Shown here piece after piece: positions 5,638 to 40,222 of a DNA stretch of 64,000 nucleotides. Source of the stretch: Anaerolineae bacterium (GTDB lineage Bacteria > Chloroflexota > Anaerolineae > Epilineales > JAHCIE01); assembly GCA_039810085.1 (NCBI GenBank), contig JBDHWG010000002.1:96281-160280 (forward strand), in the 5' to 3' direction. Under the pieces are notes generated by a model. That model was not told the DNA's origin and ran no database searches. It was given only the letters and a program-made list of their open reading frames with translations. Within the stretch, counting starts at the first letter, position 1. The number at the start of each line of letters is the position of its first letter. A program made the translations under genes and the position numbers.

Positions 5638-5661
5638 CTCACTCCTCCAGGTGCTCTAGGA

Positions 5662-25400: not shown

Positions 25401-26464
25401 ACGTCGTGCTTGTTCCCCTGGCTGTCGAATTGCACAAAACGCGCTTCGATGCCCAGCGGCACATCGTCGAAGAGCATGACCTGGCGGTCGTCGCTGACGC
25501 GCACATCAAGCTTCTGATCCTTGAGCAAGTACCACATGCGGTGCCACTGCGGGTTGGTCTGTTGTCCGCCAAGCTGCAGGCGCAGATCGACTTCACTCTG
25601 GTAGCCTGGCACCGCCAGCGTGACAGGTTCGTGGGTTATCGTGTCCTCGCCCAGGCCCAGTGTCTTGAGATAGCGGTCTGCCTCATACATCACCAGGCCG
25701 AAATGGGTCCCTTCCGTCTGGCCGTAGTAGCTCACTTTCATAGTCCCAGACGGGTTACGCGGGTCTATCGGATCAATACTGACGCCGGCGTCCTCGTGAC
25801 TCGAGTATACTGACCGCAACGCCACGACCAGGTCGCTCGGGTCGAGCTCGGGCAGGGACGGATTGTGGACGCCTAGCAGAAAGAGACGGCCTGTCGAAGG
25901 CTCATAAACCGCGCCGGTCAGGTCATTGATGTGCGCCAGCTGGGGCAGGCTGATCGACGGAGAGAGACCGCCCAACCCACCCCCGACGTCATAGTCCTTC
26001 GACGATACGCCGAGTTGCGCCAACAGGTCCGCAGCTTTGGAGGCCGGGTTGGCCGTGTTGAATGTGTAGCGGGTGGTCTTGTCTACAGCAAAGAGGATCT
26101 GGATGCTGGGGCCTGGTGGGGGCAATGACGCGGGGGACGCGGCGGCTGAGCTGCTCCCTAACCCACCGCCAGGCGGCGCATTTGCGCCGGTCGTTGGAGC
26201 GTTACTGGCCTGTGATGCCTTTGGCCTGGCATCGGCGGCGGGCGATGAGGGGCGGCTCAGGACGGATGGCAGCGTCGGCAACTTGGCCGCTAATGGTCGC
26301 AGTGGCCCGACGAGAATCAGACCCGCCACGAGGGCGACGAGAGCAAGGCCCACAACTGCCGCGATGATCAGCCATCGTCGAGACTTCGACGCGCGGCGGT
26401 ATGTGTACGGCGTCCCACTTTCATTCGTGGGCGTGTAGCGGAGACTATCCCAATCATCGCTCAT
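22493..26464 (-). CDS. 1323-aa membrane-anchored protein with YD/RHS-like repeats and possible C-terminal caspase-like His/Cys dyad
   Basis: N-terminal TM WLIIAAVVGLALVALVAGLILV. Multiple YD-type repeats (YTFDEDGQL, YKYDAADHL, QYDNNKL, YDGERLTDV, SYNPDGSM). The C-terminus has FIIGHMD and then FLGCCT ~35 aa later. It lies 10 nt downstream of the CHAT gene. Confidence 0.6.
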   Translation of the reverse strand: MSDDWDSLRYTPTNESGTPYTYRRASKSRRWLIIAAVVGLALVALVAGLILVGPLRPLAAKLPTLPSVLSRPSSPAADARPKASQASNAPTTGANAPPGGGLGSSSAAASPASLPPPGPSIQILFAVDKTTRYTFNTANPASKAADLLAQLGVSSKDYDVGGGLGGLSPSISLPQLAHINDLTGAVYEPSTGRLFLLGVHNPSLPELDPSDLVVALRSVYSSHEDAGVSIDPIDPRNPSGTMKVSYYGQTEGTHFGLVMYEADRYLKTLGLGEDTITHEPVTLAVPGYQSEVDLRLQLGGQQTNPQWHRMWYLLKDQKLDVRVSDDRQVMLFDDVPLGIEARFVQFDSQGNKHDVAGSDPVVDAFVNHFNTHFDAFAAEKPEVGALKQLAKLLSVARWLHDNNAPVDLNWLASYPIGAETPKTTPGHAVQRSKSEQSSDKIWTQISAVFGGVDYAFRNKPLPLKEDGSVRGIREAVENTPLDSAKTSANGDGKTVTGVAISMQPTLLPGALTVREKVMDIAVKGQLPLNTVIGYTSVDQETSPLGKGWRLEQKRMTLDGGDTFIMNGQPIKLYDSLTVVDDATGRQQRFYNTKRIDGDGRIIYAAEGNAAPSEIRYDRETHTFVHQDGLDQYTFDEDGQLRSQARDGEHIDYKYDAADHLTKAAHSSGGQIEFQYDNNKLTHIVGSNGKSANLTYDGERLTDVSGSDGRVLRVNYANGSPSRFQLQDKVIVTRIDDIGRVTWYQDNGSVHAISYNPDGSMIEVVRDSQRRTITIQRNRQAKVTEVSVTETKQTADPAEARKALQGVKLELNSILYQALSDSSKLDWSGFAKQGSKTAIIELTGKFALRFAGDTAVIDGRLDSKEAQDALVKAQPALTQLKERGYATRLLDVQSGAVGGVNEGAAEVVVLVAGTDGALVERHFDRLAHPQDDAVRLVADVGAQAKGLRVTGIFEVDTKTDGADSRRTFAWLTGGGELAPTSPEVMTKGQELAQVQATSHESGRQVTREMSMLMRDAIEATFTQQAPAADPHDILQRVDEFYPGLRVIGDAAVRERVKGAVEASLSRAGQSGEVVKLPPIYDEQFRWLLPGDGPVLLDMRPDLGAFAHNELGANNVRLVGETSTPLHARAVINAEANIMPSQMVVVNLEDPRLTPEEAERSRAAFDTAVEPLKRQGAQIVGIRGQANDREKVLAELSRPGVDVFIIGHMDANNNMVSKGGKISPNDITQARGDKTFLGCCTLTQGLADVAVRAGVDTATGTTEDIVPQQTYDWIAFVAKQFETRPQGMRLSEINHLYRIKTLRDGVGAPLLPMSVGPQSVAPVEG

Positions 26465-26507
26465 AGCGCCTCCCCATGCGATAAGCCCTCAAGCGCCCCA
26501 GCATTTC

Positions 26508-27239
26508 CTACGTCTTCGCCGCGCTTTCGTTTGGCCCAGTTTGTAGACCCAGTTGACGAGTAACCTCTTGCGTTGACAACGTCAGAGGTTCACCCAAGGC
26601 GAGGCACACGCGGCCCACAATCCGGCTCATGGTTCGATTAGCGTAATGCACGATCCACACTTCGCGCACCAGCATCCGACCGATATTCCGGCGCGCAACC
26701 TCGCGCAGCCCCGCCGCGAATCGCTCGCGCTCAACGGCCGAGGCAAAGGGCTGTGCGTTGTTCAGGTAGCCGATAGAGACGTGCAACCCGGTCTGATGCT
26801 TTGGCGCATCGAATCGCGGATAGTGCGCCAAACAGGCCGCGAGACGCTGCGCCAGCGTATCCTCATTGGCGAGCACCATCCCGCTGTCCGCCAGGTGAAC
26901 GCCACCAAGCGCCAATTGGAAAGGCGCGGCGCGGCTGCATATAGTAGCCACATCGGCGATGAAGCCAGGCAAGTCGGCCGGCAGCTCGGAGACCTCAAGT
27001 GGCGGGGCGTCGCGGTATCGCCCCCGCAGCGGTGCGGCTAGGGTCACATGCAGCTGCGGCGTTTCATACCAGACGAAGCGCCCCGGCAGCAAGCCCTCCA
27101 GGTCGTCTTGAATCGCCTGAACGCGATCACAGAGGGGTTCGGCGAGAGGCAAGCCCGCGACAAGACTGAGGCCATAGCTCGTTGCGCTGTTTCTGGCGGT
27201 GGTCTCGCGCACCTTGTCCTCGTCCAGCCATACGCCCAC
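26508..27239 (-). CDS. 2H phosphoesterase superfamily protein (LigT/2'-5' RNA ligase-like)
   Basis: Two H-x-[TS]-x motifs, LHVTLA and LHVSIGY, about 95 aa apart. Confidence 0.6.
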   Translation of the reverse strand: MGVWLDEDKVRETTARNSATSYGLSLVAGLPLAEPLCDRVQAIQDDLEGLLPGRFVWYETPQLHVTLAAPLRGRYRDAPPLEVSELPADLPGFIADVATICSRAAPFQLALGGVHLADSGMVLANEDTLAQRLAACLAHYPRFDAPKHQTGLHVSIGYLNNAQPFASAVERERFAAGLREVARRNIGRMLVREVWIVHYANRTMSRIVGRVCLALGEPLTLSTQEVTRQLGLQTGPNESAAKT

Positions 27240-27286
27240 GTCCTTAGCCTCCGCCTGCCCTATCGCGCAGCACTTACGAACGGGAA

Positions 27287-27790
27287 TTACTGTCTCGTCA
27301 CACTGATCCGCGCCTGTTCCGTTGCTCCGGGCGGTAGTAGTGTGCCAACATAGGTCTTGGTTTTCCGTGTTTCAGTAAGGTAGTCCTCAAAGGCTTTGTT
27401 GGCGCCCCGGTCGGCCGTGACGATTACCAACTGAAATACCTGGCCCTTGGATTGAGCACAGTCCCCGAACTGAACATTGCCTCGCCAAGTACCCTCTGCT
27501 TTTACAGCAGACTTACCAGAGCCTTGCGGTGTATCTTGCGGGTGGTATACACCATCCACATAGACAAGAGGCCATATCGCGTCCGTAACACTTGGCGGGT
27601 AAGCGCCTTCAATCGCAAGTCTACATGGCACTTCCTGTCCATCCTTTAGATTTGTTAGTGTAACAGTTCCCGTTCCAGTGCTAGCTGCCGGTTGGCTCGG
27701 CGAGCCTCCTCCCCCACAACCGCTGAGCGCGAGCAGGATGACGAAAAGCAGCGCAACGACTCGCCACGACACTCTATCAAGTATTCGCAT
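27287..27790 (-). CDS. Lipoprotein, paralog of the C-terminal ecto-domain of the 27827..29803 product
   Basis: Signal plus lipobox LALSGCGG. The mature region aligns along its length with the C-terminal ~130 aa of the adjacent 658-aa protein (e.g. QEVPCRLAIEGAYPPSVTDAIWPLVYVDGVYHPQDTPQGSGK vs QQVPCRTAIRGMYTPDVTDAIWPVIYVNGLYHPADTPQGSGK). Confidence 0.55.
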   Translation of the reverse strand: MRILDRVSWRVVALLFVILLALSGCGGGGSPSQPAASTGTGTVTLTNLKDGQEVPCRLAIEGAYPPSVTDAIWPLVYVDGVYHPQDTPQGSGKSAVKAEGTWRGNVQFGDCAQSKGQVFQLVIVTADRGANKAFEDYLTETRKTKTYVGTLLPPGATEQARISVTRQ

Positions 27791-27826
27791 GATATCCTCC
27801 CCTCACATTTTCATATTGACATGCAA

Positions 27827-29803
27827 TCACTGCCGCACAACCTCGACCCGCAGTCGTATGTCGGCACCATCGGGTAGTAGCATCCCCGGGAAGGATTGGG
27901 TCTTGCGGGTTTCCGCCAGATAGTTCTCGAATGCTGCATTTGCGCTACGATCCGCTATAACGATCAGCAGCTCAAACCGGTCTCCTCTCGAGAGAGTGCA
28001 GTCGCCAAATTGAACGACAGACTCCCAGGTACCGTTTGTCTTTTGCGCAGGCTTGCCCGAACCTTGAGGCGTATCTGCTGGATGGTACAAGCCATTCACA
28101 TAGATCACAGGCCAGATCGCATCTGTGACATCGGGAGTATACATACCCCTAATAGCAGTTCTGCACGGCACTTGTTGGCCAGGCTGCACGGTGGCAAGCG
28201 TGACTTTGTCGTCTCCGACAATCATCGTGGGCGTTGTGGGCGTGGGCCCGGTTACTGGAATTGTTGGGGGAGGCAGCGCGATTATTGGAGCCTGCTGCTT
28301 ATCGAACATCCCGGGTAGTAGAAATACTGCGACAACCACGACGGCAATCAAGACAGCTGCAATTGATAGTACGTACTTCCAAGAAGCCCATGTTGGCCGC
28401 CCAGGCACGGTTACTGTCGTTGTTGTTTCCAAGGGCAAAGGAGGTGTTAATGTGGGCGACGGAGTGGAGGAGGGCGGGGCCGAGTCTTCCAATGTGGGCG
28501 ACGAAGTGGAGGATATCGGGGCCGAGTCTTGCAATGTGGGCGACGGAGTGGAGGATATAGGAGTCGAGTCTTGCAATGTGGGCGACGGAGTGGAGGCGAT
28601 AGATGATATACCTGGTGTAGCCGGTAGACATGGACATGGGTGCGTGACGATGCGCGAGTAGACAATTGGCGTTGCCATCTCAATCTCCCAGGGCAGTTTC
28701 AGGTCCCGAATGGCAACGCGGCCCTTGGTTGTCTGTACTGCTAAACACTCTAGGGAGTAGTAATCCGCCCGATCTGAGGGACCTGTCAGGAAGGCATCTA
28801 CAAAGGCGCGGGCAGCCTTCGTGGAGATGGTCGTCTGCATGGCAATGACGACGCCCGCCTTGAGCAGCAGGAGGTCGAGATCTTCCTGGTCCAGTTTACC
28901 CAGGTCGCAGACCAACAGGAATAGGATATCTATCTGTCTGTGTGGCAAGTGCTCCGTGAAGTCAGAGATGGGCGAGGCTTGGAATTTTCCCGACCCTTCT
29001 TTGAAAGAAAGGACACCCGCCTCTCCATGCGTGATTAGCATAAGAAGCCCGGTCGATGGAGCGTCTACCAACGTTGCCTTAAGGCTGTCTAAATCCCCAT
29101 TGGTGGTGGAAAGCCGACCAACCTCGCTGAACCACCTCCGCCGCGTCCCTGTCACGGCGCTAATTTGCTCAATAAAGTCCTCTAAATTGTCATGACGGAC
29201 ATACTGGATCAGCCACTTTGATTCGTTGGTTCCACACAACCGATGAGCTGCTGACACGTCCTCTGGCCTAATCCGAATAATTGAGATCTTCTCATAGCAG
29301 CCTGAAAAAGGAGATTTCTTGCCTAGAAGATAAATGGTCTCCCAGTTATACCTCTGTATGTCCGCGCACAAAGCAAGCTCAATGATGAGGCAGTCGGACG
29401 AACGAACAACATTCTTCCACCAGCCCCGAAGCCCTTCGGCATTCTCTTCTCCCCAGACATCTGCTTCCCAGAATACTTCGGCGAGTTTGCCAGCCTGCTC
29501 TACCAGGACGGCTCTAAACTCCTCAATCGTTTCTAGCACAGCCTCAGATTGCTCCAATTCTCTATCTGGCTTGTAATCTGTCCCCTTCTGGAACCGTTCC
29601 TGGAATTTCCGAAGGTATTGCTTATGCTTATCAATCTTTTTGTACGTCTTGTTGGCTTCAAGCTCCGCGACCGTGCTCCACGTGCCCTCTGTACACGGCG
29701 GCGTCTCGAGGCCCGCTGGTGCGCGGCAGGCGACGAGTTTGACATCGTACCCATTCGGGGCGTTCGTTATGATGAGCCGAACAACAGAGATGTCTTGCGT
29801 CAT
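27827..29803 (-). CDS. Single-pass membrane protein: N-terminal cytoplasmic caspase/CHAT-like domain, S/T/P-rich tandem-repeat linker, TM helix, C-terminal extracellular beta-domain
   Basis: LLMLITHGEAGV (His) and ILFLLVCDLG (Cys) lie ~42 aa apart, a caspase-like arrangement. There are three STPSPTLQDSxPISS repeats. The TM segment is YVLSIAAVLIAVVVVAVFLL. The C-terminal domain is paralogous to the adjacent lipoprotein. Local GC is visibly lower (28.8-29.8 kb). Confidence 0.55.
   Translation of the reverse strand: MTQDISVVRLIITNAPNGYDVKLVACRAPAGLETPPCTEGTWSTVAELEANKTYKKIDKHKQYLRKFQERFQKGTDYKPDRELEQSEAVLETIEEFRAVLVEQAGKLAEVFWEADVWGEENAEGLRGWWKNVVRSSDCLIIELALCADIQRYNWETIYLLGKKSPFSGCYEKISIIRIRPEDVSAAHRLCGTNESKWLIQYVRHDNLEDFIEQISAVTGTRRRWFSEVGRLSTTNGDLDSLKATLVDAPSTGLLMLITHGEAGVLSFKEGSGKFQASPISDFTEHLPHRQIDILFLLVCDLGKLDQEDLDLLLLKAGVVIAMQTTISTKAARAFVDAFLTGPSDRADYYSLECLAVQTTKGRVAIRDLKLPWEIEMATPIVYSRIVTHPCPCLPATPGISSIASTPSPTLQDSTPISSTPSPTLQDSAPISSTSSPTLEDSAPPSSTPSPTLTPPLPLETTTTVTVPGRPTWASWKYVLSIAAVLIAVVVVAVFLLPGMFDKQQAPIIALPPPTIPVTGPTPTTPTMIVGDDKVTLATVQPGQQVPCRTAIRGMYTPDVTDAIWPVIYVNGLYHPADTPQGSGKPAQKTNGTWESVVQFGDCTLSRGDRFELLIVIADRSANAAFENYLAETRKTQSFPGMLLPDGADIRLRVEVVRQ
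28452..28610. repeat. ~3.7 copies of a 42-bp tandem repeat (gtgggcgacggagtggagga...gagtcttccaat)
   Basis: Direct reading. It encodes the STPSPTLQDSxPISS repeats on the minus strand and is in-frame (42 = 14 codons). Confidence 0.7.
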
Positions 29804-29821
29804 GACTCCCCTGGTTCGCGC

Positions 29822-31492
29822 CTACGGCTGGGGTGTGCGCGTGAAACAGCCATAGATGAAAGAGGTAGCCGATGTGGTATCGCCAGCGCCAACGAACTTC
29901 AGTCCGGATGGCTCGATCTGGAATAGCGCGACGGGAATCACACCAATTCGATACGTCCTGGCGTCATCATCGAACCATCCACGAGCGGCGATGGCTTTGA
30001 ACCTCGGCAAGCCGCGAAACGCAATCGTACCCTTCTCTAGCGGGAAGGCTCGTCGGGCAAGCAGGTCAATGAACACCTTGAACTTGCTCATAGCAAAGCC
30101 AAGATCAATATCGGGTGAGGAACCAATGTCCACGCTGAGCGCTCGGTTTGTCACCACGGTTTTGGCATACAGATCGGCCAGGACTTCGCGGTCGAGGTGC
30201 TCATCTGTGGCCTGCCCCTCGACGCACCGGCGAATAACCAGGTCTACCGTTAAGCTGTGGATATAGATGCGATCCAGCGCCAGCACCGACGCCAGCCACA
30301 TGCCCAAATCCAGGATGTACTCGACGTGTGCAACCTCACTGTCCTCGTCCAGGGGCTCCGGAAAGGGGATCATCCGTCGTTCGCCCGTCGCCGCCAGGTT
30401 TTGTCGGACAGCATCGGCGAAGCCCACGACATCGTCGTAGTTGACGCCAATGCTGTGGACATACTCCTTCACGATGCACTGGAACCAGGGTAAGAGCGCC
30501 GGGGAGGCAATTTCCACGTGGAGCGTCACGTGCGGTCGCGCCTGTTGGAGAGCTGTCTCGACCGCTTGCTTCTCGCGCTTGTCGGAGAGACTCTGTATTC
30601 CACCGAGAATCCAGTATGGGTAGTCTTCGGCGACCGGCTCGGCGCACGTCGGGCCTGTGTGGATATCGGCAGCGAGAATGTGCTCGAAGTGTGGGTCGAA
30701 GTTCTGGCTGCGCGAAAGGTCCACCTCGCCTGAATCGGTGTAGTAGCGGTAGCCAGGGGCGACAGCAATGACGCGGTCGCTCGTTTGGACAACCCCCTCC
30801 CAAAGTACCTCGCCCTGAGCCTCCAGCTTGAGAGAAGTCCCCTTGGCGAACTCCATCGAGTAGTTGATGATTGTAGGGTCATCAGGGCGCGCCGCCGCGT
30901 GGACAGGGAGAACCTGCCAGTGACACTCCTTGTCGAGCGTCAAGTACTTCGTCTTGGCATTGAACAGCCGCGCCTGTGCCTGTGACAGATAGGGTGTCCA
31001 GAACACGACATTCGGCTCGCCTATTTGCGTCAAGACGTCGGCAATGATGGCTGGCGCGCCGCCTACCTGTCCAGGCGATGAGCCTGCTTGAGAGCGATAC
31101 CACTCGTGGAGGAAGTCGAGAACGTACAGGGCCGTGGCCTGGATATAGACCCGGTCAGGCGTCTGGCCGCCGTACACAATTCGGGCCAGGAGCGCCTTGA
31201 GCACATCTGTCGCGGACACGGCTTCTCGCCGGCCGGCGGCGGGGGACTTGGTTGCCGCTTCAACAAGCTCGCGCACCACCTCAGGCGGGGCGCAGTTGTC
31301 GTAGCGAGCGGCCAGGTCAATAGCAAACGCGAGCGATTTCTGATCGATGCGGATGACGCGGTCTATCGTACAGGCATAGTGGCTGAGAATGCGCTTATTG
31401 GTGGGGGGGAGTTGGCTGGCGACTACCTGGCGCCAGAACCAAATGCGCATTAGTCTCGACAACTCAGATGGTGGCAGGAACTCGGCTGCCAT
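29822..31492 (-). CDS. ADP-dependent sugar kinase family (ADP-PFK/ADP-GK, ribokinase-like) homologue with N-terminal extension
   Basis: The C-terminal motif FVGAGDTTSATSFIYGCF closely matches the GxGDTISSxAF anion-hole / catalytic-Asp motif of archaeal ADP-dependent glucokinases and phosphofructokinases. Length is 556 aa. Confidence 0.55.
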   Translation of the reverse strand: MAAEFLPPSELSRLMRIWFWRQVVASQLPPTNKRILSHYACTIDRVIRIDQKSLAFAIDLAARYDNCAPPEVVRELVEAATKSPAAGRREAVSATDVLKALLARIVYGGQTPDRVYIQATALYVLDFLHEWYRSQAGSSPGQVGGAPAIIADVLTQIGEPNVVFWTPYLSQAQARLFNAKTKYLTLDKECHWQVLPVHAAARPDDPTIINYSMEFAKGTSLKLEAQGEVLWEGVVQTSDRVIAVAPGYRYYTDSGEVDLSRSQNFDPHFEHILAADIHTGPTCAEPVAEDYPYWILGGIQSLSDKREKQAVETALQQARPHVTLHVEIASPALLPWFQCIVKEYVHSIGVNYDDVVGFADAVRQNLAATGERRMIPFPEPLDEDSEVAHVEYILDLGMWLASVLALDRIYIHSLTVDLVIRRCVEGQATDEHLDREVLADLYAKTVVTNRALSVDIGSSPDIDLGFAMSKFKVFIDLLARRAFPLEKGTIAFRGLPRFKAIAARGWFDDDARTYRIGVIPVALFQIEPSGLKFVGAGDTTSATSFIYGCFTRTPQP

Positions 31493-31544
31493 GCGGCCTC
31501 CTCGTGAACTGGCAGGCGACGGATGATTAGGGAAACAACATCTC

Positions 31545-32537
31545 TTAGGGGTTGTCTAGCTCTTCCTCTTGGCGTCGCGCGGATTCTTCGCTCAGCGCGT
31601 CTATAATCGTCTCGGCCTGCCAGCGTTCTAGCAACAGGCTGATGGCTAATGCCCGTTGAGGCCTGTCATAAGTTCGTCCGCTCAATTTCTCGATCCGTCT
31701 GAAAGCTGCATTCAAGACGATGTCGTCTTCCCCTTGCTTCAGGGCCTGCGTGATGGCAGCGCGTTCGTGTCGGGGGATAAGATCGTCGAGAGCAGAGACG
31801 AGACCGAGCGTTGCGACCGGCATTGGTGGTTTCGGCTCCGGCGCATTCAGCAGCTCCGCCAGCATGTTTCTGCGGGGCAGCTCCAGGCCTCGAACGGCGA
31901 ACTGGGCAAGCGCGCTCGTGACCGCCGACTGAAGGTTCGGATCTGGGAAGCGATGTTGCAGAAGGTCGTCCAGCAACTGGCTGGCAACGAGGACAAGATC
32001 TCCTTCTGGTTGTTGAAACCGCCTGATCGTCCGGCCGTCCATAGCCTGCCCAAGCGCCTGAACCAACTCGGCGCGTACGTCGTCGCTTGCTTCGGGCGCA
32101 TGATCAACAAAGACCGCCTTCGCGCGCCGCAACAACTCCCGCCCGGCTTCGAAGCCGCCAATTTGGCCGAGCGCCCAGGCCATCGCAGCGCGCTGTTCCG
32201 CCCCGATACTCTGGTCCTCTAGCGCCTGCCCTAGTATGCGGACGGCCTTCAGAGCATCCAGGTCGAGATCGCTCGCGCGCTCCTCCAATTCCCTACGCAG
32301 CTTGGCGCCGTATCGCCCGAGAACGGTGGCGGCGCGTAGCAAGACTGGCATCTCAATCTGATCTGACGCCTCGGGCGCTCGCTGCTCGATATACTCTGTC
32401 AATTGACCGATCGTTGGCATGGTAGGCTCGCTTCGTGGAGGGACGCGAAAAGTGCCCCTTGCTGGCATCTCACGCTCGACTGCTGTCCGGACTGCGGGAG
32501 TTGCCATAGCGGATAGGTTTAAGATACCACATGGCAA
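31545..32537 (-). CDS. Alpha-helical repeat (HEAT/armadillo-like) protein, hypothetical
   Basis: Repetitive A/L/E/R-rich helices. The start may be the internal MPTIGQ (~32420). Confidence 0.45.
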   Translation of the reverse strand: MPCGILNLSAMATPAVRTAVEREMPARGTFRVPPRSEPTMPTIGQLTEYIEQRAPEASDQIEMPVLLRAATVLGRYGAKLRRELEERASDLDLDALKAVRILGQALEDQSIGAEQRAAMAWALGQIGGFEAGRELLRRAKAVFVDHAPEASDDVRAELVQALGQAMDGRTIRRFQQPEGDLVLVASQLLDDLLQHRFPDPNLQSAVTSALAQFAVRGLELPRRNMLAELLNAPEPKPPMPVATLGLVSALDDLIPRHERAAITQALKQGEDDIVLNAAFRRIEKLSGRTYDRPQRALAISLLLERWQAETIIDALSEESARRQEEELDNP

Positions 32538-32604: not shown

Positions 32605-33378
32605 TTACGCGCCAGATGGCTGTTTGGTAACTCCGCGCTCGCTGCGGCGGATGATGTACCTGTATTCAAACTTGTCGGCGCGGTCGATGGAGTGCAACAC
32701 CTCGAAGACCTGGCCGGTCTGATCGTAGGAGATCCGGTCCCGCACCACAACTGCCGTCCCCTCCTCGATCTCCAACAACCTCGCCTCCTCCACCGTCGCG
32801 TTCCCCACGCGGATCAACTCGTCCGCCTCCACAATCTGCCGCCCATAGCGCTTTTCATATAGCTCGAAGAGGTGGAGCAGGTCCTGCTCCAGGATATCGG
32901 GGCACAGCTCAGGCAAGACATACACCGTCTGGATAGCGAAGGGGACGTTGTTGCCTTTCTTGAGCCGGCAAATCTCGATAACGTCCGCATCTGGCTCAAG
33001 CTCAAAGCCCTCCATGACCCGCGTGCGCCGGGCGTCGGAGGCCTTAATCATGCCTTTGCTCAGGAGGACCGTCGAGGGCGTGATCTGGGCATCCGATAAT
33101 TGCGCGTTAAAGGACTTGATCTTTCCAAACTTGGCAACCGCCGGCGTCTTGCGCAGAACGACCGTACCACGCTTGGGGTAGCGGCGCAGGTAGCCCTCCT
33201 GTGAGAGCTGCTTCAGCGCCTCGCGCACCGTGACCCGGCCTACCCCATACAGTTCGGTCAGCTCATCTTCAGTGGGGATATTCTCCCCAACTTTCCAAAC
33301 CTCACGCTCAATACGTGAGAGAATGTCCTTCTTGACCTGGAGATACAGCGGCTCAGCGCTGCTTGATTGACGCAACAT
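32605..33378 (-). CDS. GntR family transcriptional regulator, HutC subfamily (wHTH + UTRA effector domain)
   Basis: PLYLQVKKDILSRIEREVWKVGENIPTEDELTELYGVGRVTVREALKQLSQEGYLRRYPKRGTVV is a classic GntR HTH. The C-terminal ~150 aa is UTRA-like. The ORF extends to 33423, but the ATG at 33378 (MLRQSS...) lies downstream of a candidate promoter. Confidence 0.8.
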   Translation of the reverse strand: MLRQSSSAEPLYLQVKKDILSRIEREVWKVGENIPTEDELTELYGVGRVTVREALKQLSQEGYLRRYPKRGTVVLRKTPAVAKFGKIKSFNAQLSDAQITPSTVLLSKGMIKASDARRTRVMEGFELEPDADVIEICRLKKGNNVPFAIQTVYVLPELCPDILEQDLLHLFELYEKRYGRQIVEADELIRVGNATVEEARLLEIEEGTAVVVRDRISYDQTGQVFEVLHSIDRADKFEYRYIIRRSERGVTKQPSGA

Positions 33379-33407: not shown

Positions 33408-33438
33408 CGTATGATACCGCCAAGAGAGGCGCTTGTCA
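33408..33438 (-). promoter_or_regulatory. Candidate promoter for GntR gene (TTGACA-17-TATCAT read on minus strand)
   Basis: The minus-strand reading is cTTGACAag-cgcctctcttggcgg-TATCAT. Its -35 box is the inverted mirror of the plus-strand -35 box at 33511. Confidence 0.35.
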
Positions 33439-33510
33439 AGGGGGATTGCCAGGGCAGAGCGGAGAGAGGGAAGAACATCGTGATTGGGAGGAGATATTTC
33501 AGATTCCCTC

Positions 33511-33539
33511 TTGACAAGCCCAGATAGCTGTGCTAAACT
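33511..33539 (+). promoter_or_regulatory. Candidate sigma70 promoter (TTGACA-17-TAAACT) for the E2/E1/Ubl operon
   Basis: ccctcTTGACAagcccagatagctgtgcTAAACT. A GGGAGG SD lies 6 nt before the ATG at 33595. Confidence 0.4.
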
Positions 33540-33547
33540 AAAGAAAT

Positions 33548-33561
33548 GTTACTATTGTAAC
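33548..33561. promoter_or_regulatory. Palindromic operator candidate GTTAC-N4-GTAAC at the predicted transcription start
   Basis: tGTTACtattGTAACg lies immediately 3' of the -10 element. GntR-family operators are typically short GT...AC palindromes. Confidence 0.35.
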
Positions 33562-33594
33562 GAATAAATAGAAAGATTAAGAAGGGAGGCTGCG

Positions 33595-34764
33595 ATGTCC
33601 GAGTGGTCCGGGAAGGCCGCCGATCGGGAGAACTATGCCTTCCTTCGCCATAGGCAAGAACGCAACGACCGGAAATGCTTGCAGGACACGCTCGACCAGT
33701 CGTGCGCTCGAATTGCAGCGCTGCAGAAACGGATTTTCGATGCCACGTTGCGGCCGCAGACTCAGCCTAACTCGCTTCTCCAGCGTATTCTGGGCGCTCG
33801 CTCCCTTGCCGGCCACGCGGCCAACGAGTTCGATGCCCTTAACGTGTCGCTGTCCATCGCCCGCATTGGGTGTACGCGCACTACTAGGACGCTCGTCATC
33901 ACAACGGCCACTGAGCCGGAGATGCACATAACCGTTAATCTTGCGAACGGGTCAGTTGAGGTGGATCAGCCAATTCTGATCCTGCGGGATATGGCCGTTC
34001 GCTCGGTGTGCGCTGCCCTCGTCGCGGCCGGCGAGCTTGACGCCGTTGTGGCACTCGTGGCGGGGCATGCGCCTCTTTCGCGGTCGGCGGCGTACTCCCG
34101 CCCGCAGTTCGAGCCGCGCGCCCGTCAGGGATACATCGCTATCCGGTCCGAAGTGCTCATGCGCGCGCTCGTTTCCGCGCCCAGCCAGCAGGAAGTGGAG
34201 CAGCAGCTTCGGGTGTGCGCGGCTGAGCTTGAGGCAGAGCTGACCCACTATAGGCTCCTTCAGCAGGCATTGCGTCAATTTGACAGGTCTGCTTGCATTG
34301 TCTCCGCTGACTATGGGCGGGAGTTTGATCTCCTGTGCGAGCTGCCAGGTGTGAGGCGGATCGAGGTATTGCGGGGCGGCCCAATCCGTGTCGAGACTGA
34401 GCCAGTGATTGTGTCCTACAGCGGCGCCTCGCAACTGCTGGGATGCTATCGCATCGAGATTACGGTCTCCGCCGCGCCGCATTTGACCATCATCAACCTG
34501 GATCGTCCTGTCTGGCGTAGCGACCGCCGGTATGACCACCCGCACGTCGCCGACGGCGTCCCGTGCTGGGGCAATGCAGCAAGTTACGTCGCTCAAGAAC
34601 TCGCCGCCGCGAACTATCCCGCCGTCGTCCAGCAGAGCGTCGAATTTCTCAACTCTTACAACCCCGACAATCCCTTTCTTGGCATCGAGAACTGGTTCTC
34701 GGCTGGCAGCTCGTCAGCATCGGTCTGCTACAGCTACGCCGACGATGGTGGCTGGGGCGAGTAG
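33595..34764 (+). CDS. E2-like ubiquitin-conjugating (UBC-fold) protein with ~280-aa N-terminal uncharacterised region
   Basis: The C-terminal segment ...RYDHPHVADGVPCWGNAASYV matches the E2 HPN-x5-G-x-C catalytic motif (HPNV...G.ICL). It sits in an operon with the E1 and Ubl genes. Confidence 0.6.
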   Translation: MSEWSGKAADRENYAFLRHRQERNDRKCLQDTLDQSCARIAALQKRIFDATLRPQTQPNSLLQRILGARSLAGHAANEFDALNVSLSIARIGCTRTTRTLVITTATEPEMHITVNLANGSVEVDQPILILRDMAVRSVCAALVAAGELDAVVALVAGHAPLSRSAAYSRPQFEPRARQGYIAIRSEVLMRALVSAPSQQEVEQQLRVCAAELEAELTHYRLLQQALRQFDRSACIVSADYGREFDLLCELPGVRRIEVLRGGPIRVETEPVIVSYSGASQLLGCYRIEITVSAAPHLTIINLDRPVWRSDRRYDHPHVADGVPCWGNAASYVAQELAAANYPAVVQQSVEFLNSYNPDNPFLGIENWFSAGSSSASVCYSYADDGGWGE

Positions 34765-34786
34765 CAAGGCACAAGGAAGGTCTGTT

Positions 34787-34903
34787 ATGGAGAAGCTCAT
34801 CGGCAGAGTGGGAGCCTGCAGCGGCTATAGGTCAGCCGAGTCGTGTGTCTGCAAGGACGATGGTTGCCAGCCGTGCGACACGCGCCAGGCAAGGAAGGGC
34901 TAG
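34787..34903 (+). CDS. 38-aa cysteine-rich microprotein (putative zinc-binding), translationally coupled to E1 gene
   Basis: MEKLIGRVGACSGYRSAESCVCKDDGCQPCDTRQARKG. An AAGGAAGG SD lies 8 nt upstream. Its TAG stop abuts the E1 ATG (ctagATG). It is below the 60-aa cutoff of the ORF track. Confidence 0.4.
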   Translation: MEKLIGRVGACSGYRSAESCVCKDDGCQPCDTRQARKG

Positions 34904-35566
34904 ATGTTGGATCGAACTCGGCAGCAGGACATCGCCGATCCGGCCGTCTTGCGAGCGGTGGGGGTTGATGTTGTCGGCGTGGGGGCCGTGGGCGGAATGA
35001 CTGCCGTGACGCTGGCAAAGATGGGCGTGGGCCGTCTGCGACTGTTTGACCCGGATATTGTCGAGACTGTCAATCTGGCTTGCCAGATGTACGCCCTGGC
35101 GGACCTCAGTGTGGCGAAAGCTCTCGCCGCACAGCGTCTGTGCCGCGAGCTAGGCGACGCCGAGGTGGAGGCTGTCGTTGGGCGAGGCGAAGACTCCGTG
35201 CTCGAAGGGATCGTTGTCCTGGCAGTGGATAGCATGGTGGCGCGTCGGAGCATCTGGGAGCGGCGCATTGTCAGCAGCCCGCGGGTGGCGTGGCTCATTG
35301 ATGCGCGCATGGGCGCCGAGACCGGCACGATCTACACCGTTCGGCCTGGCCTTTCCTCGCAGCGCCGTATGTATGAGATGAGCCTCTACACAGATGAGGA
35401 AGCCATGCCGCTGCCGTGTACAGGTCGCGCCATTATCTACAACACGCTCTGGATCGCGGCCCTCATCAGCCGCCAGGTCAAGCGCATAGCGATGCGGCAG
35501 CTCGTTGAGTGGAGAATCGATTTCTCCCTGGACGACTTGACCTTGTTTGTCGACTCGCACGTCTGA
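34904..35566 (+). CDS. E1-like ubiquitin-activating enzyme, minimal ThiF/MoeB-type (220 aa)
   Basis: The Rossmann glycine motif is VVGVGAVGGMTAVTLAKMGVGRL. The E1 signature is LFDPDIVETVNLACQ (D-x-D-x-V-E-x-x-N-L-x-R-Q). Confidence 0.8.
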   Translation: MLDRTRQQDIADPAVLRAVGVDVVGVGAVGGMTAVTLAKMGVGRLRLFDPDIVETVNLACQMYALADLSVAKALAAQRLCRELGDAEVEAVVGRGEDSVLEGIVVLAVDSMVARRSIWERRIVSSPRVAWLIDARMGAETGTIYTVRPGLSSQRRMYEMSLYTDEEAMPLPCTGRAIIYNTLWIAALISRQVKRIAMRQLVEWRIDFSLDDLTLFVDSHV

Positions 35567-35584
35567 GCAAGAAAGGAGAGCAAC

Positions 35585-35866
35585 GTGGACATATTGAGGG
35601 AACGAACAGTTCGGTTGGAAACACCCAATGCTAACGGGAACGGCCACGCCGCCGAGGGCAGCGTCATCATCGCGGCGGTCGGGGTCTTCCGCGAGGCGGA
35701 ACCTGGTCACACCGTGCGTGAGACGCTGGCTGGCGTTGGGGTGCCCGGCCCTGCGCCGGGCCAGGCGCTTCGGGTGAACCAGGAGGAACTTCAGGCGAAC
35801 GACATGGACCGGGTCTTGAGGCCGGGCGATAAAGTGACCATTGTCAATCGCGTCGTGGGTGGGTAG
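35585..35866 (+). CDS. Ubiquitin-like beta-grasp protein (ThiS/MoaD-like) ending in Gly-Gly
   Basis: GTG start with AAAGGAGAG SD. The C-terminus is ...RVLRPGDKVTIVNRVVGG followed directly by a stop. It lies 18 nt downstream of the E1 gene. Confidence 0.7.
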   Translation: MDILRERTVRLETPNANGNGHAAEGSVIIAAVGVFREAEPGHTVRETLAGVGVPGPAPGQALRVNQEELQANDMDRVLRPGDKVTIVNRVVGG

Positions 35867-35931
35867 GTGTCCCGATGGGGGTATTCGGGATACGCCAGTA
35901 CCCCCATCTCACATCTTATACGGAGGAACGC

Positions 35932-36840
35932 ATGCGCCACATCGCCGTGGTTGGGGCGGGTTACGTCGGTGTAACAACTGCCATCGGGCTTGCGAGCCTG
36001 GGCTACCGTGTCATTGTTGTGGACATTGATGGAGATCGCATCGCGCAGCTTCAGCAGGGCCAAGTCCCGTTCTATGAACCGGGGCTGCCTGAGATGCTCC
36101 GCGAGATGCAACTCGTCGGCCGCCTGAGCTTCACGACAAGCTACCAGGCAGCCCTCCACGATGCCGACATCGCGTTTGTCGCTGTCGGCACTCCGTCGGG
36201 CGACCGGGGCGAGGCCGACCTGTCCTACATGCGAATCGGTCGCGCATTTCTGCAAGCTGGACTCGGATTTGGCGGCTCGTGCTTTCCAAAGGATGTCAAA
36301 GCGCTCCGGCACACCCTGGACACGTTCGGCTGCAATACGATGCTCGTGGATGCGATCCTCGGCATCAATGCCGAGCAGCGCCAGCGTGCCATCCAGGTGG
36401 TTGAGCGCCTCTTGGGTGGTTTGTCGCTCCGCACCGTCGCCGTGCTTGGTCTGGCGTTCAAGCCAAACACCTCTGACGTGCGGGAGTCGCCGGGGTTGGA
36501 GATTGTCCGCCTGCTTCACGCTGGGAATGCCCTTGTGCGCGCCCACGATCCTGTCGTCGGCCCCCAGGCGGTTGGACTGCCGCCAGCTGTGGCGTACTTC
36601 GACGATGTGTACGAGATGGTCACGGACTGTGACGCCATTATCATTGCCACAGAGTGGGATGAGTACAAGAAGCTCGACTTGCCGCGCCTCAAAGAGCTGA
36701 TGCGCCAGCCGGTGCTGGTAGATGGTCGCAACATCTTCGAGCCGGCGCGAATGCTAGAGTTGGGGTTCTGCTACCGTGGTATCGGCCGAGGGCATATGCC
36801 CTCGGCCGATATTATTTCGGCCCACGCCCGATGCTCTTGA
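35932..36840 (+). CDS. UDP-glucose/GDP-mannose dehydrogenase family protein with ~130-aa internal deletion (possible pseudogene)
   Basis: The N-terminus is MRHIAVVGAGYVGVTTAIGLA...IDGDRIAQLQQGQVPFYEPGLPEML. The catalytic motif GFGGSCFPKDV and C-terminal UDP-binding domain LGLAFKPNTSDVRESPG are present. Only ~35 aa separate the VGTP strand from GGSCFPKD, where family members have ~165 aa. Confidence 0.5.
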   Translation: MRHIAVVGAGYVGVTTAIGLASLGYRVIVVDIDGDRIAQLQQGQVPFYEPGLPEMLREMQLVGRLSFTTSYQAALHDADIAFVAVGTPSGDRGEADLSYMRIGRAFLQAGLGFGGSCFPKDVKALRHTLDTFGCNTMLVDAILGINAEQRQRAIQVVERLLGGLSLRTVAVLGLAFKPNTSDVRESPGLEIVRLLHAGNALVRAHDPVVGPQAVGLPPAVAYFDDVYEMVTDCDAIIIATEWDEYKKLDLPRLKELMRQPVLVDGRNIFEPARMLELGFCYRGIGRGHMPSADIISAHARCS

Positions 36841-37517: not shown

Positions 37518-39006
37518 GTGACGTAAGAAGAGTGAGACCAGCTGGGGTCGAGTCGGTAGGAGAACCATCACAACCCCAGGAGGTCTCAGACAATGATGCA
37601 GCAAGACGTCGGCCAGCGCAAGGATGAGATAGATGATAGCAAGTTGTCGGCAGCGCTGAGCCAGCAGATGATCGCCTTTCTCGCCCCTCTGCTGGTACGG
37701 TTGGATGCCTACTTGGACAAGCGATTAGTGCGTACATTCGTCAGAACCTTGGACCCCATGCTCATCTTCCGCCAGCGCCCTGGGGGGCTGTTGCTCAGTG
37801 AGTTGGGCGCCTTCATCACATCGCCGGCTCATGCCCCGGCGGGCACCAAGCGGCTGGGCAACCTCATCCGCTCGCCGCGTTGGAGTGCCAGCTTGCTCGA
37901 CGCCTATCACTGGCATCTGGCACAGCAGCGCCAAACCGAGTTGGAAGCGGCGGGCGAGGCGAGCCTCGTCATCTGGGACACCAACGAACTCGAGAAGGCC
38001 GAGAGCCGCCAACTCGAAGGACTGTGCGCGGTACGCTCCTTGAAGGCGGCGCGCCTCACTCGTCATCGCCCCGGCTTCACGCAGCCGCCGCTGGGGCACA
38101 AGCGTGTCTTCGTCCCCAGCTGCCACTGGCTCAGCCTCATGGTCAGTGGTATGAGTGGGCCGCCCACCCTCGCGGCCATGCGCTGGTGGACGAGCCGCGG
38201 CCCGCTCGCCTCCGACATGCGCACCGAGGAAGGGGCGCTGGTGGAGGACTGTCGGCGGCTGTGGGTACGACGCGTACGCCATGTCTTCGACCGTGGCTTC
38301 GCCGGCAACCCGTGGTTGACCCGCTTGCGGCAGGCGGATGTCCGCTTCGTCCTGCGCTCGCCTGGTCGCTATCACCTCCTCGATGCTCAGGGTCGTGACC
38401 GACCCGCCTAGCGGGTGGCGTTCGGGAAGCGAACCCAAGACTACCGTTACCTGCGCGACACCCGTCGCAGTTGTCCACGCAAGATCGGCTTGCTGGTTCT
38501 GCCGGTCACCCATCCCGAGCATCCCGACTGGCCGCTGTGGCTCTTGGTCTCGCGCCAAGGCCAGGGCCGCTCGCCCTGGTATCTGCTGACCAACGATCCT
38601 ATCACCACGCTTGATGAAGGCTGGCAGAGGGTCTTGGCCTACGCCCGTCGCTGGCAGATCGAGCAGACGTGGCGCTTCAGCAAGAGTGAGTTAGCGATGG
38701 AGAGCCCTCACGTCTGGCGCTGGGCGGATCGCCGCAAGTTGCTCCTGATGGCGTCCCTCGCCTGTGCCTTCCTGTTGCTCCTCCTGCGTCAGTGGTGCCA
38801 TCGCACGGGGCAACGTCTCCGCCAGGTACGCTTGCCCCTCTATCGCTTGCGCTCGGCCCTCAGTCGTTTGTGGCTGGCTCATGCCCCGCCATCCCTCGAC
38901 TTCGCCTTGTTAAATTCGGGATGACTCAGGTGGCTGCTTTTCCTCCCCCTCTCCTTCATTTAGAATACAACTCATCTGTAGCCGCCCATGTTACTTACGA
39001 CGTCAC
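37518..39006. mobile_element. IS4/IS701-like insertion sequence (~1.49 kb) with imperfect terminal inverted repeats
   Basis: The left end GTGACGTAAGAAG (37518-) and right end CTTACGACGTCAC (38994-39006) are inverse complements sharing GTGACGT..AAG. Together they enclose a DDE-type transposase reading frame. Confidence 0.5.
37593..38924 (+). pseudogene. IS4/IS701-family DDE transposase interrupted by an in-frame TAG stop (38409-38411)
   Basis: ORFs 37593..38411 (272 aa) and 38415..38924 (169 aa) are in the same frame and are separated only by TAG. The combined ~442 aa is typical of full-length IS701/IS4 transposases. The second part carries the conserved YARRWQIEQTWRFSK motif. Confidence 0.55.
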
Positions 39007-39086
39007 CGGCGCATCATCGAGTACGAGTTTTCCGACAACTATCATACCCAAACAAACCAGCAACGCGGTGACGTGGCGTACCACGA

Positions 39087-39527
39087 TCATGCCTTGGAAG
39101 AGCTCTTCGCTTTGTCTTCTTTCAACAGCCGATCGTAGCAGCCGCCCCAGAGATCGGGCGTGCGCGTCATCTTTGTGAGCTTGATATCGCTGAAGCGCGG
39201 CAGCAGCAGCGCGAGCACCGTCGGCAAGTCGTTCCACCGCTCTCGCACCAGCACGACCTCCAACTGCCGCGCCATGGGCTCAACCCACGCCCACTGGAGC
39301 CTAAAACGATCCGCCTTCATGTAATAATCTCGCTTCTCCCACGCCGCGGCACTTGTATCCACACCCTGCTCGATACCCCGCAGCGAGTAGACGATGAGCG
39401 CCGCGAGGTCTCGGGCCTCGTCGTCAATGGCTTGCTTCTGACCGAGCAGCCGCAGAGCTTCAGCAATTGTCCGCCGCAGCCGATTGCGCTCGGCGCCTGC
39501 ACTATCGGTATTCACCACCCTACCCAT
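39087..39527 (-). CDS. Hypothetical 146-aa protein whose 3' half is duplicated in inverted orientation 400 bp away
   Basis: ORF of reasonable composition. The duplicated copy at 39666..39947 (+) encodes a ~90%-identical C-terminal segment. Confidence 0.4.
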   Translation of the reverse strand: MGRVVNTDSAGAERNRLRRTIAEALRLLGQKQAIDDEARDLAALIVYSLRGIEQGVDTSAAAWEKRDYYMKADRFRLQWAWVEPMARQLEVVLVRERWNDLPTVLALLLPRFSDIKLTKMTRTPDLWGGCYDRLLKEDKAKSSSKA

Positions 39528-39900
39528 ATCGCCTCCATGGACTTGAACAAGCGTTCGAGAGTCTACTCTGCTTTGATGCTCAGGTCAAACGTCAGGAGCA
39601 AGGTTCTTGGGACGTGTGTATGAGAGACTCATCAGTGTCAAGCGGCGCTGGGCGTCACCAGTATCGTGAGAACTTGGAGTAAGTCGACGGGCGAGAGCGT
39701 ATACCTATTGTGGCGGAACGCAGATCGTTTTAGGCTCGAGTGGGCGTGGGTTGAGCCCATGGCGCGGCAGTTGGAGGTCGTGCTGGTGCGAGAGCGGTGG
39801 AACGACTTGCCGACGGTGCTCGCGCTGCTGCTGCCGCGCTTCAGCGATATCAAGCTCACAAAGATGACGCGCACGCCCGATCTCTGGGGCGGCTGCTACA
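39135..39900. repeat. Inverted duplication: arms ~39135-39318 and ~39716-39900 (about 90% identical) flanking a ~400-bp spacer
   Basis: Overlapping ORFs on both strands give near-identical peptides: RFRLQWAWVEPMARQLEVVLVRERWNDLPTVLALLLPRFSDIKLTKMTRTPDLWGGCY and MERLADGARAAAAALQRYQAHKDDAHARSLGRLL, each seen twice in opposite orientation. Confidence 0.7.
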
Positions 39901-40222
39901 ACCGACTACGGAGAGAGGAGAAAGCCAAGACCGCTTCCAAGGCATGATCGTGACGGGTAGTGTCGTTTCCTCATCCTTCATGCTTGCCGCTGCTCTCGCC
40001 GCACTCCCTGCGCCTCATCACGCGGCCAGACGAAACACGATCTCACCAGACCTCCATGCCGTAACGGTAGGTGGAGTTTCATCGTCTTACACAATAGATC
40101 ACCTTTTCTCCCGTCTGGTTCGGCATGCCGCTGCGCACTCGCCTCACGCCTTCGCCATATCCTAGGGCCTGCCTGAAAAGCAGTAAACACGTAGTCTGGA
40201 GCCGAGCGCAAAGGAGTGCTCA

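Follow-up and report, generated by a model that had tools for sequence, protein, structure and literature searches.

What does a four-gene bacterial operon encode that combines relatives of the E1 and E2 enzymes of ubiquitination with a candidate ubiquitin-like protein (Ubl), and does it belong to any of the conjugation systems described from prokaryotes? This question is posed by positions 33,408 to 35,866 of a 64,000-nucleotide (nt) stretch of DNA from an Anaerolineae bacterium (contig JBDHWG010000002.1), hereafter referred to as the window, for which a first-pass annotation had proposed a compact E2/microprotein/E1/Ubl operon under a divergent GntR regulator. The four co-directional open reading frames (ORFs) occupy 33595-35866 on the plus strand, each with a Shine-Dalgarno-like sequence before it, and their spacers measure 22, 0 and 18 nt, in agreement with the zero or 18-22-nt spacing annotated at first. 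We consider it likely that they form a Ubl-conjugation cassette with three enzyme steps, which would belong to a distinct bacterial and phage family and of which the window appears to hold a reduced copy without the JAB peptidase gene.

Central to this reading is the protein of 389 amino acids (aa) that the ORF list places at 33595-34764 (plus strand). Searches against Pfam, NCBIfam, PADLOC and PHROGs gave no match, a word-indexed homologue search retrieved the protein itself only, and a later profile search via the word index was unproductive, too. A full HMMER scan (phmmer) of 1.84 billion cluster representatives, in turn, found 682 relatives at E <= 1e-3, which have residues ~200-370 in common and of which, among the 150 best matches, 141 carry an HPH-x(5-8)-C motif. 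In the window protein, this motif reads HPHVADGVPCWG (H315-P316-H317, 34537-34545; C324, 34564-34566), and G283, H315, P316, H317 and C324 are invariant across an 86-sequence family alignment, so the HPH and Cys residues on which the initial E2 call had been staked are conserved in homologues. An HPN-type motif with the catalytic Cys 7-10 residues downstream, as found here, is the signature of the UBC/E2 superfamily. The profile of the C-terminal domain retrieved E2s only from the PDB sequences, besides one marginal designed protein (E = 0.95); its best match was UBE2L3 (E = 0.0018) over the entire UBC core, with HPH aligned to HPN and Cys324 to the catalytic Cys86, and hhalign of the domain against UBE2L3 returned a probability of 89% (E = 2.2e-6). 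Among the Pfam families, UQ_con was reached by one family member (7e-5), while the Prok-E2 families matched none of the 86 members at E <= 0.01. Besides, AlphaFold2 with the family alignment modelled the domain at a pLDDT of 88.8, with the N-terminal helix, beta-meander and C-terminal helices of the UBC fold, and Foldseek of this model placed UbcH7 structures at ranks 1-6 (probability 0.89-1.00). In sequence profile as well as in structure, no solved proteins are hence closer than UBE2L3/UbcH7-type E2s, and the C-terminus of the 389-aa protein, its last ~160 residues (34285-34764), is a UBC/E2 domain, as the first-pass annotation had held.

The part that precedes the UBC core comprises ~230 aa (33595-34284), and not the 280 aa initially assigned to it. 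Apart from a short beta-rich segment, it is of helical, coiled-coil-like character; the full-length profile, whose matches among PDB sequences were swamped by coiled-coil noise, retrieved nothing but coiled-coil proteins for this N-terminal part, and AlphaFold2 from the single sequence of the whole protein was of low confidence (pLDDT 39). The N-terminal part is kept only in the closest homologues (P0046-P0050 align from about residue 6-15) and, being variable and coiled-coil-like across the family, lends no support to the earlier proposal of a substrate-recognition module. Of note, a subset of the family E2s (P0087, P0071, P0113, P0145, P0167, P0179, P0188, P0192 and P0110) bears C-terminal extensions of ~120-140 aa, built of ~27-aa Cys-rich repeats with the consensus (D/E)C(V/I)xCxDxxCPY that probably bind metal.

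The E1 (34904-35566, plus strand) is a single-domain, ThiF-type protein of 220 aa, which Pfam ThiF (PF00899) matches at 7.6e-15 (55.1 bits, cut-off 28.1), and its family consists of 215-240-aa proteins in which G25, G27, G30, D109, R135, C172 and T173 (the latter two within a P-C-T motif) are invariant. Its nucleotide loop reads GVGAVGG (GxGxxG at 34976-34993). The catalytic cysteines of E1s sit on the crossover loop, and a cysteine is found there in this protein as in E1 and ThiF/MoeB enzymes: hhalign against Escherichia coli ThiF (probability 98.3%) aligned Cys172 (35417-35419) with ThiF Cys184 on that loop. Missing from the same alignment is the Zn-binding CxxC site of ThiF. The annotation of a minimal ThiF-type E1 thus stands with regard to family, GxGxxG loop and cysteine, whereas the full motif signature claimed for it does not, as the motif reads DPDIVETVNLACQ, which lacks the Arg of the classical NLxRQ (family consensus NLPNQ). 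By profile, ThiF, Uba1/5/6 and MccB lie at about the same distance from the E1, and Cap2 and BubCD lie far from it, and the NCBIfam ThiF and MoeB equivalog scores of the E1 remain far under the respective cut-offs.

The 93-aa protein (35585-35866, plus strand) is, as judged from its profile matches, a ThiS/SAMP-like beta-grasp Ubl. The single sequence scored under the Pfam ThiS cut-off (0.0021; 19 bits against 22.5), while the profile of its orthologues matched ThiS (1.1e-5), PF1061 (1.6e-5) and SAMP2 (4e-5) with the terminal Gly-Gly aligned, following a ThiS-like pattern of RVN...L..GD.V.IV...GG. The ORF ends in VVGG (Gly92-Gly93 at 35858-35863) with the stop directly after, exactly at Gly-Gly as annotated, and therefore no processing is needed. 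Orthologues retain this end, too: VVGG is followed by the stop in two of them (L009 and L049), GG by 1-19 further residues in others (L053, L051, L012-L018 and L007; 19 in the Dehalococcoidia Ubl), and the remaining ones end in AG or GA variants. Such a mixture of tailed and tailless proteins is the pattern expected if a JAB peptidase matured some of the precursors.

To place these proteins, loci were fetched via both E1 and E2 from 39 GTDB genomes, 13 IMG/VR contigs and several metagenome contigs (~60 loci) and scanned with locally built hidden Markov models (HMMs) of the family proteins. A module of the form (Ubl)-E2-JAB-E1-(Ubl) was nearly universal: the E1 is closely preceded by the E2 in almost all loci with enough upstream sequence, a JAB gene with an HxH-x7-S-xx-D motif stands between the two in most loci, and the Ubl gene either comes before the E2 or follows the E1. 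The hosts comprise Chloroflexota, Methylomirabilota, Myxococcota, Planctomycetota, Gammaproteobacteria, Omnitrophota and Patescibacteria, with the Myxococcota and Planctomycetota branch showing the full Ubl-E2-JAB-E1 order. The closest relatives of the window E2 (32-36% identity) are organised as AAA-E2-JAB-E1-Ubl (L049, L051 and L053) or E2-JAB-E1-Ubl (L009). In Methylomirabilota, JAB-less E2-E1-Ubl operons with a 5-12-nt gap occur independently (L012-L018), and the reduced layout is therefore not unique to the window genome. Both the E2 and the E1 of the window keep every family-invariant residue.

Five loci carry an AAA+ gene directly upstream of the E2 (L051, 6349-8001; L049, 1064-2713; L053, 235-1896; L005, 2136-3881; L010, 3678-5318). 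The L051 protein matches the NCBIfam model pup_AAA (Mpa/ARC proteasome ATPase) at 4e-51 over nearly its full length, albeit under the cut-off, and a locally built HMM placed the other four in its group. This Mpa-like neighbour suggests that Ubl tagging is coupled to unfolding or degradation. L051 further holds, at 1957-6352, a second ThiF-domain protein (471 aa), a Cys-rich protein with a weak Prok-RING_1 match, a second JAB-like protein (341 aa) and a 95-aa protein without terminal GG, and homologues of the latter three are present in L005 and L010; these extra genes could be a second tier of Ubl machinery. The E2-JAB-mini-E1(-Ubl) module is also carried by IMG/VR contigs of 10-200 kb (L055-L067), some of them with three to five extra E2 paralogues, several of which lie downstream in L057 and L058, and the cultured Flavobacterium phage FpV4 (L068, NC_041872) contains a JAB and mini-E1 pair. 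In cultured Flavobacterium phages, the mini-E1 is annotated as 'thiamine biosynthesis protein ThiF', and the pair adjoins a 289-aa protein with an internal ...VKSGG motif.

Compared with these relatives, the window stands out by what occupies the JAB position, namely a 139-nt spacer between E2 and E1 in place of a gene for a ~200-aa protein. The family JAB HMM had no match in any frame of the window, in line with the initial statement that no JAB or other deubiquitinase gene is present, and tblastn and the JAB HMM revealed no JAB remnant in any of the six frames of 34651-35000. An AAA+ gene was not found in the window, either. The spacer holds the 38-aa Cys-rich ORF (34787-34903, plus strand), whose status is uncertain. 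For coding speak an SD-like AAGGAAGG 6 nt upstream, a stop codon that abuts the ATG of the E1, and an in-frame GC content at third codon positions (GC3) of 0.79. On the other hand, the ORF is absent from all related loci and was seen only in copies of the same locus, in which it is not called by gene finders. It shows no variants in these copies, so that strain variation speaks neither for coding nor against it. The first-pass annotation had counted a Cys-rich peptide among the operon's products: the ORF with its five Cys does exist, but it is not conserved, and most likely it takes no part in the mechanism and is no conserved component of the family. The idea that it represents a detached DCVxCxDxxCPY repeat of the E2 tails was rejected, as 806 of 2000 shuffled sequences scored at least equally.

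Folds, motifs, family-wide conservation and gene linkage are directly visible in these loci, and from homology the following route can be proposed. The E1, probably a ThiF/MoeB-like homodimer, would adenylate Gly93 of the Ubl, which would then move as a thioester onto the crossover-loop Cys172 and pass to Cys324 in the C-terminal UBC domain of the E2. From there, the E2 would transfer the Ubl to amino groups of its targets without a dedicated E3, and its N-terminal coiled-coil region might serve oligomerisation or partner binding. With no JAB among its genes, the operon itself would supply no enzyme to undo the modification. With respect to the purpose of such tagging, the island context described further below, the Mpa-like ATPase in relatives and the presence of the module on viral contigs suggest a role in inter-genomic conflict, or else in stress-linked tagging for unfolding or degradation.

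How does this family relate to known systems? Iyer et al. 2006 distinguished classes 6a-6e (PMC1779556), which correspond to 6A-MBL operons, Type II CBASS Cap2, Type II Bil, Type I Bil and Bub, respectively (PMC10557695, PMC11601603, PMC11601596); that class 6d is the same as Type I Bil is our own reading of the published descriptions. Bil resembles the present family in its separate Ubl, E2, JAB and E1 genes, in that the E2-JAB-E1 core follows the order BilB-C-D and the Myxococcota/Planctomycetota branch has the complete Ubl-E2-JAB-E1 order, as well as in the C-terminal Gly of the Ubl, the conflict-island context and the presumed Cys thioester cascade through E1 and E2. However, Bil E1s are multidomain, consisting of an inactive and an active adenylation domain (IAD and AAD) together with a mobile CYS domain (PMC10557695), whereas the E1 here is one 220-aa ThiF domain. 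Bil E2s, moreover, belong to the CEHH type (6c) or have no classical His (6d) (PMC1779556, PMC10557695), and Type II Bil combines a CEHH E2 with a multidomain E1 that has an N-terminal Prok-E2_C domain (PMC10557695). The E2 here, in a comparison that takes BilB by its description, differs by a classical HPH-x6-C motif and the ~230-aa N-terminal extension, and the window order of E2, 38-aa ORF, E1 and Ubl differs by a Ubl downstream of the E1 and the absence of JAB. No Bil proteins were among the PDB sequence matches of the E1 and E2 profiles.

The Bub systems (6e/DUF6527) likewise are bacterial operons of E1, E2 and Ubl with optional JAB and single-domain Ubls, yet they proceed through oxyester (Ser) intermediates and feature fused Ubl-E2, JAB-E1 or E2-E1 proteins and a DUF6527 serine protease (PMC11601596, PMC11601603). 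Here, by contrast, Cys occupies both catalytic positions and each component has a gene of its own; DUF6527 was not among the Pfam matches of neighbouring window ORFs, and BubCD matches the E1 profile weakly (2.7e-7). With Cap2/Cap3 of Type II CBASS, the family has E1 and E2 domains and a JAB partner in common, and PADLOC Cap2 'E1-E2' models match the window E1 at 6e-13, over the Rossmann part only, and the E2 not at all. Cap2, however, is an E2-E1 fusion that conjugates a CD-NTase and not a Ubl, while in the window E2 and E1 are two distinct proteins, with no CD-NTase in their vicinity. Small single-domain E1s with a crossover-loop Cys and beta-grasp carriers ending in GG also make up the ThiS-ThiF, MoaD-MoeB and SAMP-UbaA pairs. 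SAMPs are conjugated without an E2, and the present family differs from all three pairs in having an E2 and usually JAB, in lacking sulfur-transfer partners, and in an E1 without the Zn site. Among solved proteins, the E2 itself most resembles the eukaryotic UBE2L3/UbcH7, with which it has in common the UBC fold, an HPN-type motif, the distance from this motif to the catalytic Cys and, in the helices after the Cys, a ...L..SYNP...P motif resembling ...L...P.P..P. Altogether, the family follows the same logic as Bil, Bub and Cap2 but does not show the features by which each of these is defined.

No description of an E2-(JAB)-mini-E1-Ubl family was found in the searchable literature, although an earlier one in Burroughs et al. 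2011 (PMC5938088) is possible, and Kaur et al. (PMC7159879) briefly note that, in Thermofonsia and Planctomycetes, a Ubl system is coupled to Pup components, which might overlap with this family. The first-pass claim of an undescribed architecture is accordingly plausible for the family as a whole, for whose E2 none of the four family databases holds a model, and fails for the combination of microprotein and GntR switch to which it had referred. A more ambitious proposal, which we put forward tentatively and with considerable doubt, is that these operons constitute a further major, undescribed family of prokaryotic ubiquitination in bacteria and large phages, whose E2 is closer to eukaryotic E2s than are those of Cap2, Bil and Bub, whose E1 is minimal, and whose fuller forms are coupled to an Mpa/PAN-like unfoldase for ubiquitin-proteasome-like tagging. 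If so, the window would contain its smallest self-sufficient version, with a pre-matured GG Ubl and no deconjugase. Studies of bacterial Ubl conjugation have dealt with few families only (Cap2, Bil I and II, Bub), and these have changed views on the origin of ubiquitination and on antiphage defence; a further abundant family would provide a three-protein system of ~700 residues for E1-to-E2 transfer, for which the window copy would be a natural minimal version without protease. The classical-looking E2 would bear on the ancestry of eukaryotic E2s, and the related operons would link Ubl tagging to a proteasome-type ATPase, with the module found in phage-like contigs as well.

Several points weigh against a conjugation cassette, and some of them invite other explanations of the locus. 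All of the chemistry outlined above is deduced from homology and conservation, as are regulation, targets and role; a target or an E3 is not identifiable for the window operon, the notion of a defence role derives from neighbourhood and analogy, and the divergent NagR/DasR-like GntR protein described below may act as repressor of the operon on the grounds of its gene position. By sequence, Ubl and E1 are closest to the sulfur-carrier pair ThiS/ThiF, and in two Dehalococcoidia loci (L007, 6001-7587; L015, 2249-3259) an E1-Ubl pair occurs without E2 or JAB, which may reflect a different use of this pair. In a sulfur-carrier system, the ThiS-like protein would be converted into a thiocarboxylate for cofactor or natural-product biosynthesis and the 389-aa protein would be an accessory. 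Besides the Dehalococcoidia pairs, of which the one in L007 is followed by a DsbA-like gene, such a system is favoured by ThiS, MoaD and TtuB-type carriers being the best profile matches of the Ubl and by ThiF being that of the E1, with Cys172 aligned to the acyl-disulfide Cys184. It is, however, difficult to reconcile with a UBC-fold protein with invariant HPH...Cys that is linked in nearly all loci, usually together with JAB, or with an E1 that misses the ThiF/MoeB Zn site. Moreover, the thiamine or molybdenum cofactor genes that the first-pass annotation had named as pointing to such a role are not nearby, and the window ORFs covered by the Pfam scans include no rhodanese, ThiG, ThiH, MoaE or cysteine desulfurase. 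Carriers of the SAMP type become attached to proteins as well, and similarity to ThiS therefore does not exclude conjugation. Overall, a pure sulfur carrier appears quite improbable to us.

The window copy is also without the JAB and AAA+ genes of its nearest relatives and adjoins a probably truncated gene and a transposase-sized ORF pair. This might indicate a decaying remnant, that is, an (AAA)-E2-JAB-E1-Ubl operon that lost JAB and AAA by deletion and became nonfunctional, with the 38-aa ORF arising by accident in the scar. Consistent with decay are the AAA-E2-JAB-E1-Ubl or E2-JAB-E1-Ubl layout of the nearest relatives as opposed to the bare 139-nt spacer, the gap in the Pfam coverage of the downstream ugd-like ORF, and the transposase-sized pair with its 237-nt inverted duplication; yet the E2, E1 and Ubl ORFs are intact with all family-invariant residues in place, they are accompanied by a strong promoter and Shine-Dalgarno-like sequences, the searches of the spacer revealed nothing derived from JAB, the Ubl needs no processing, and independent JAB-less operons exist in Methylomirabilota. 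We thus consider a remnant unlikely. The chances are slimmest for a pathway akin to those of ribosomally synthesised and post-translationally modified peptides, in which the 38-aa Cys-rich peptide would be the substrate of an E1-like adenylating enzyme such as MccB or PaaA. While the Shine-Dalgarno-like sequence of the ORF, the coupling of its stop to the E1 start and its coding-like GC3 would fit a genuine peptide, and while the E1 profile matches MccB and PaaA at ~1e-14, other E1-type enzymes are matched likewise, the 220-aa E1 has no N-terminal peptide-clamp domain, and the peptide, which is without homologue and uncalled on metagenome copies, is missing from every related locus, in which E2, E1 and Ubl are conserved.

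Returning to the conjugation cassette, its expression probably comes from a sigma-70-like promoter at 33511-33539 (plus strand; TTGACA-17-TAAACT with extended TG, 10/12 positions of the consensus), which lies back to back with that of the GntR gene at 33411-33439 (minus strand; TTGACA-17-TATCAT, 11/12 positions); the consensus scan of the region gave these two sites with 0.9 expected. A 15-nt inverted repeat (arms 33431-33445 and 33505-33519, 93% complementary, 59 nt between the arms) covers both -35 hexamers, so that the two promoters do mirror each other as initially described. Also present at the predicted transcription start is the palindrome GTTACTATTGTAAC (GTTAC-N4-GTAAC, 33548-33561), the sole exact match in the window, which we take to fit the general GntR operator type GT-Nx-AC. 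However, as 0.62 such sites are expected per window by chance when one mismatch is allowed, its sequence is not statistically unusual, and it is its position only that suggests a putative GntR operator.

The regulator gene itself (32605-33378, minus strand) encodes a 257-aa GntR/HutC-type protein with the N-terminal GntR winged helix-turn-helix and C-terminal UTRA effector domain of the HutC subfamily, both of which exceed their Pfam cut-offs (GntR 1.7e-17, 63.3 bits; UTRA 1.8e-29, 102.8 bits), and its nearest solved relatives are NagR/YvoA (1.2e-22) and DasR (4e-21). Most likely, translation starts at ATG 33378, the length of 257 aa being also called on the metagenome copy L003; the alternative TTG 33423, which would give 272 aa, is disfavoured since it overlaps the gene's own -10 element. 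The two closest relatives with upstream sequence (L009 and L051) carry a homologous sigma70_r4-type divergent regulator (1e-27) instead of GntR. The regulator is thus lineage-specific, and the GntR switch that the first-pass annotation regarded as part of the architecture is not a conserved element of its design.

Beyond the GntR gene, the minus strand holds Pfam-annotated genes of a conflict island that extends from 32537 down to ~1330. The island begins with a HEAT-repeat protein (31545-32537) and a 556-aa ADP-PFK/GK-like protein (29822-31492), followed by a LigT/2H phosphoesterase (26508-27239), with a 1323-aa RHS-repeat protein lying within 22493-32537; the same segment also holds a 658-aa and a 167-aa protein without Pfam match. 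Further down are a CHAT protease (20549-22483), a DO-GTPase (19169-20377), a GAP1-N2/M protein (17364-19160), a 1480-aa protein without Pfam match (9270-13712), a metallophosphoesterase (8299-9273), a vWA protein (5662-8286) and a protein with Tubulin_2 and a zinc ribbon (1330-5637). The genes from HEAT down to ~15240 are tightly packed, and the GntR gene may be the first of this array. By its domain content, the portion at 1330-22483 matches the GAP1-N2 GTPase-centric conflict systems, with their tubulin-containing theme, of Kaur et al. 2020 (PMC7159879). A conserved linkage of the E2 operon to the HEAT and ADP-PFK-like genes was considered and rejected, since a single other locus, L009, shares the ADP-PFK-like neighbour, along with HEAT_2 and CHAT by Pfam.

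On the other side, the operon is followed by a 321-aa ORF resembling UDP-glucose/GDP-mannose dehydrogenase (ugd; 35875-36840, plus strand), which is probably internally deleted or degenerate, because its Pfam matches leave uncovered the second half of the N-terminal domain as well as the first half of the central one. Next, at 37593-38924, come two ORFs of 272 and 169 aa without Pfam match, which to judge from their length and arrangement may be the two pieces of a split transposase. Behind them, at 39082-39952, lies a 237-nt inverted duplication (arms 39082-39318 and 39716-39952, 94% complementary), by which part of a small ORF is repeated.

Finally, the identical locus is present in at least ten metagenome assemblies, in which strain variation was found in the E1 only, amounting to 8-9 substitutions that change two residues. 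Between the window and the copies L001 and L002, all 8-9 differences fall within 63 nt of the E1 gene (35137-35199), where they replace R by G and V by T, and the remainder of the 1.9-kb overlap is identical.

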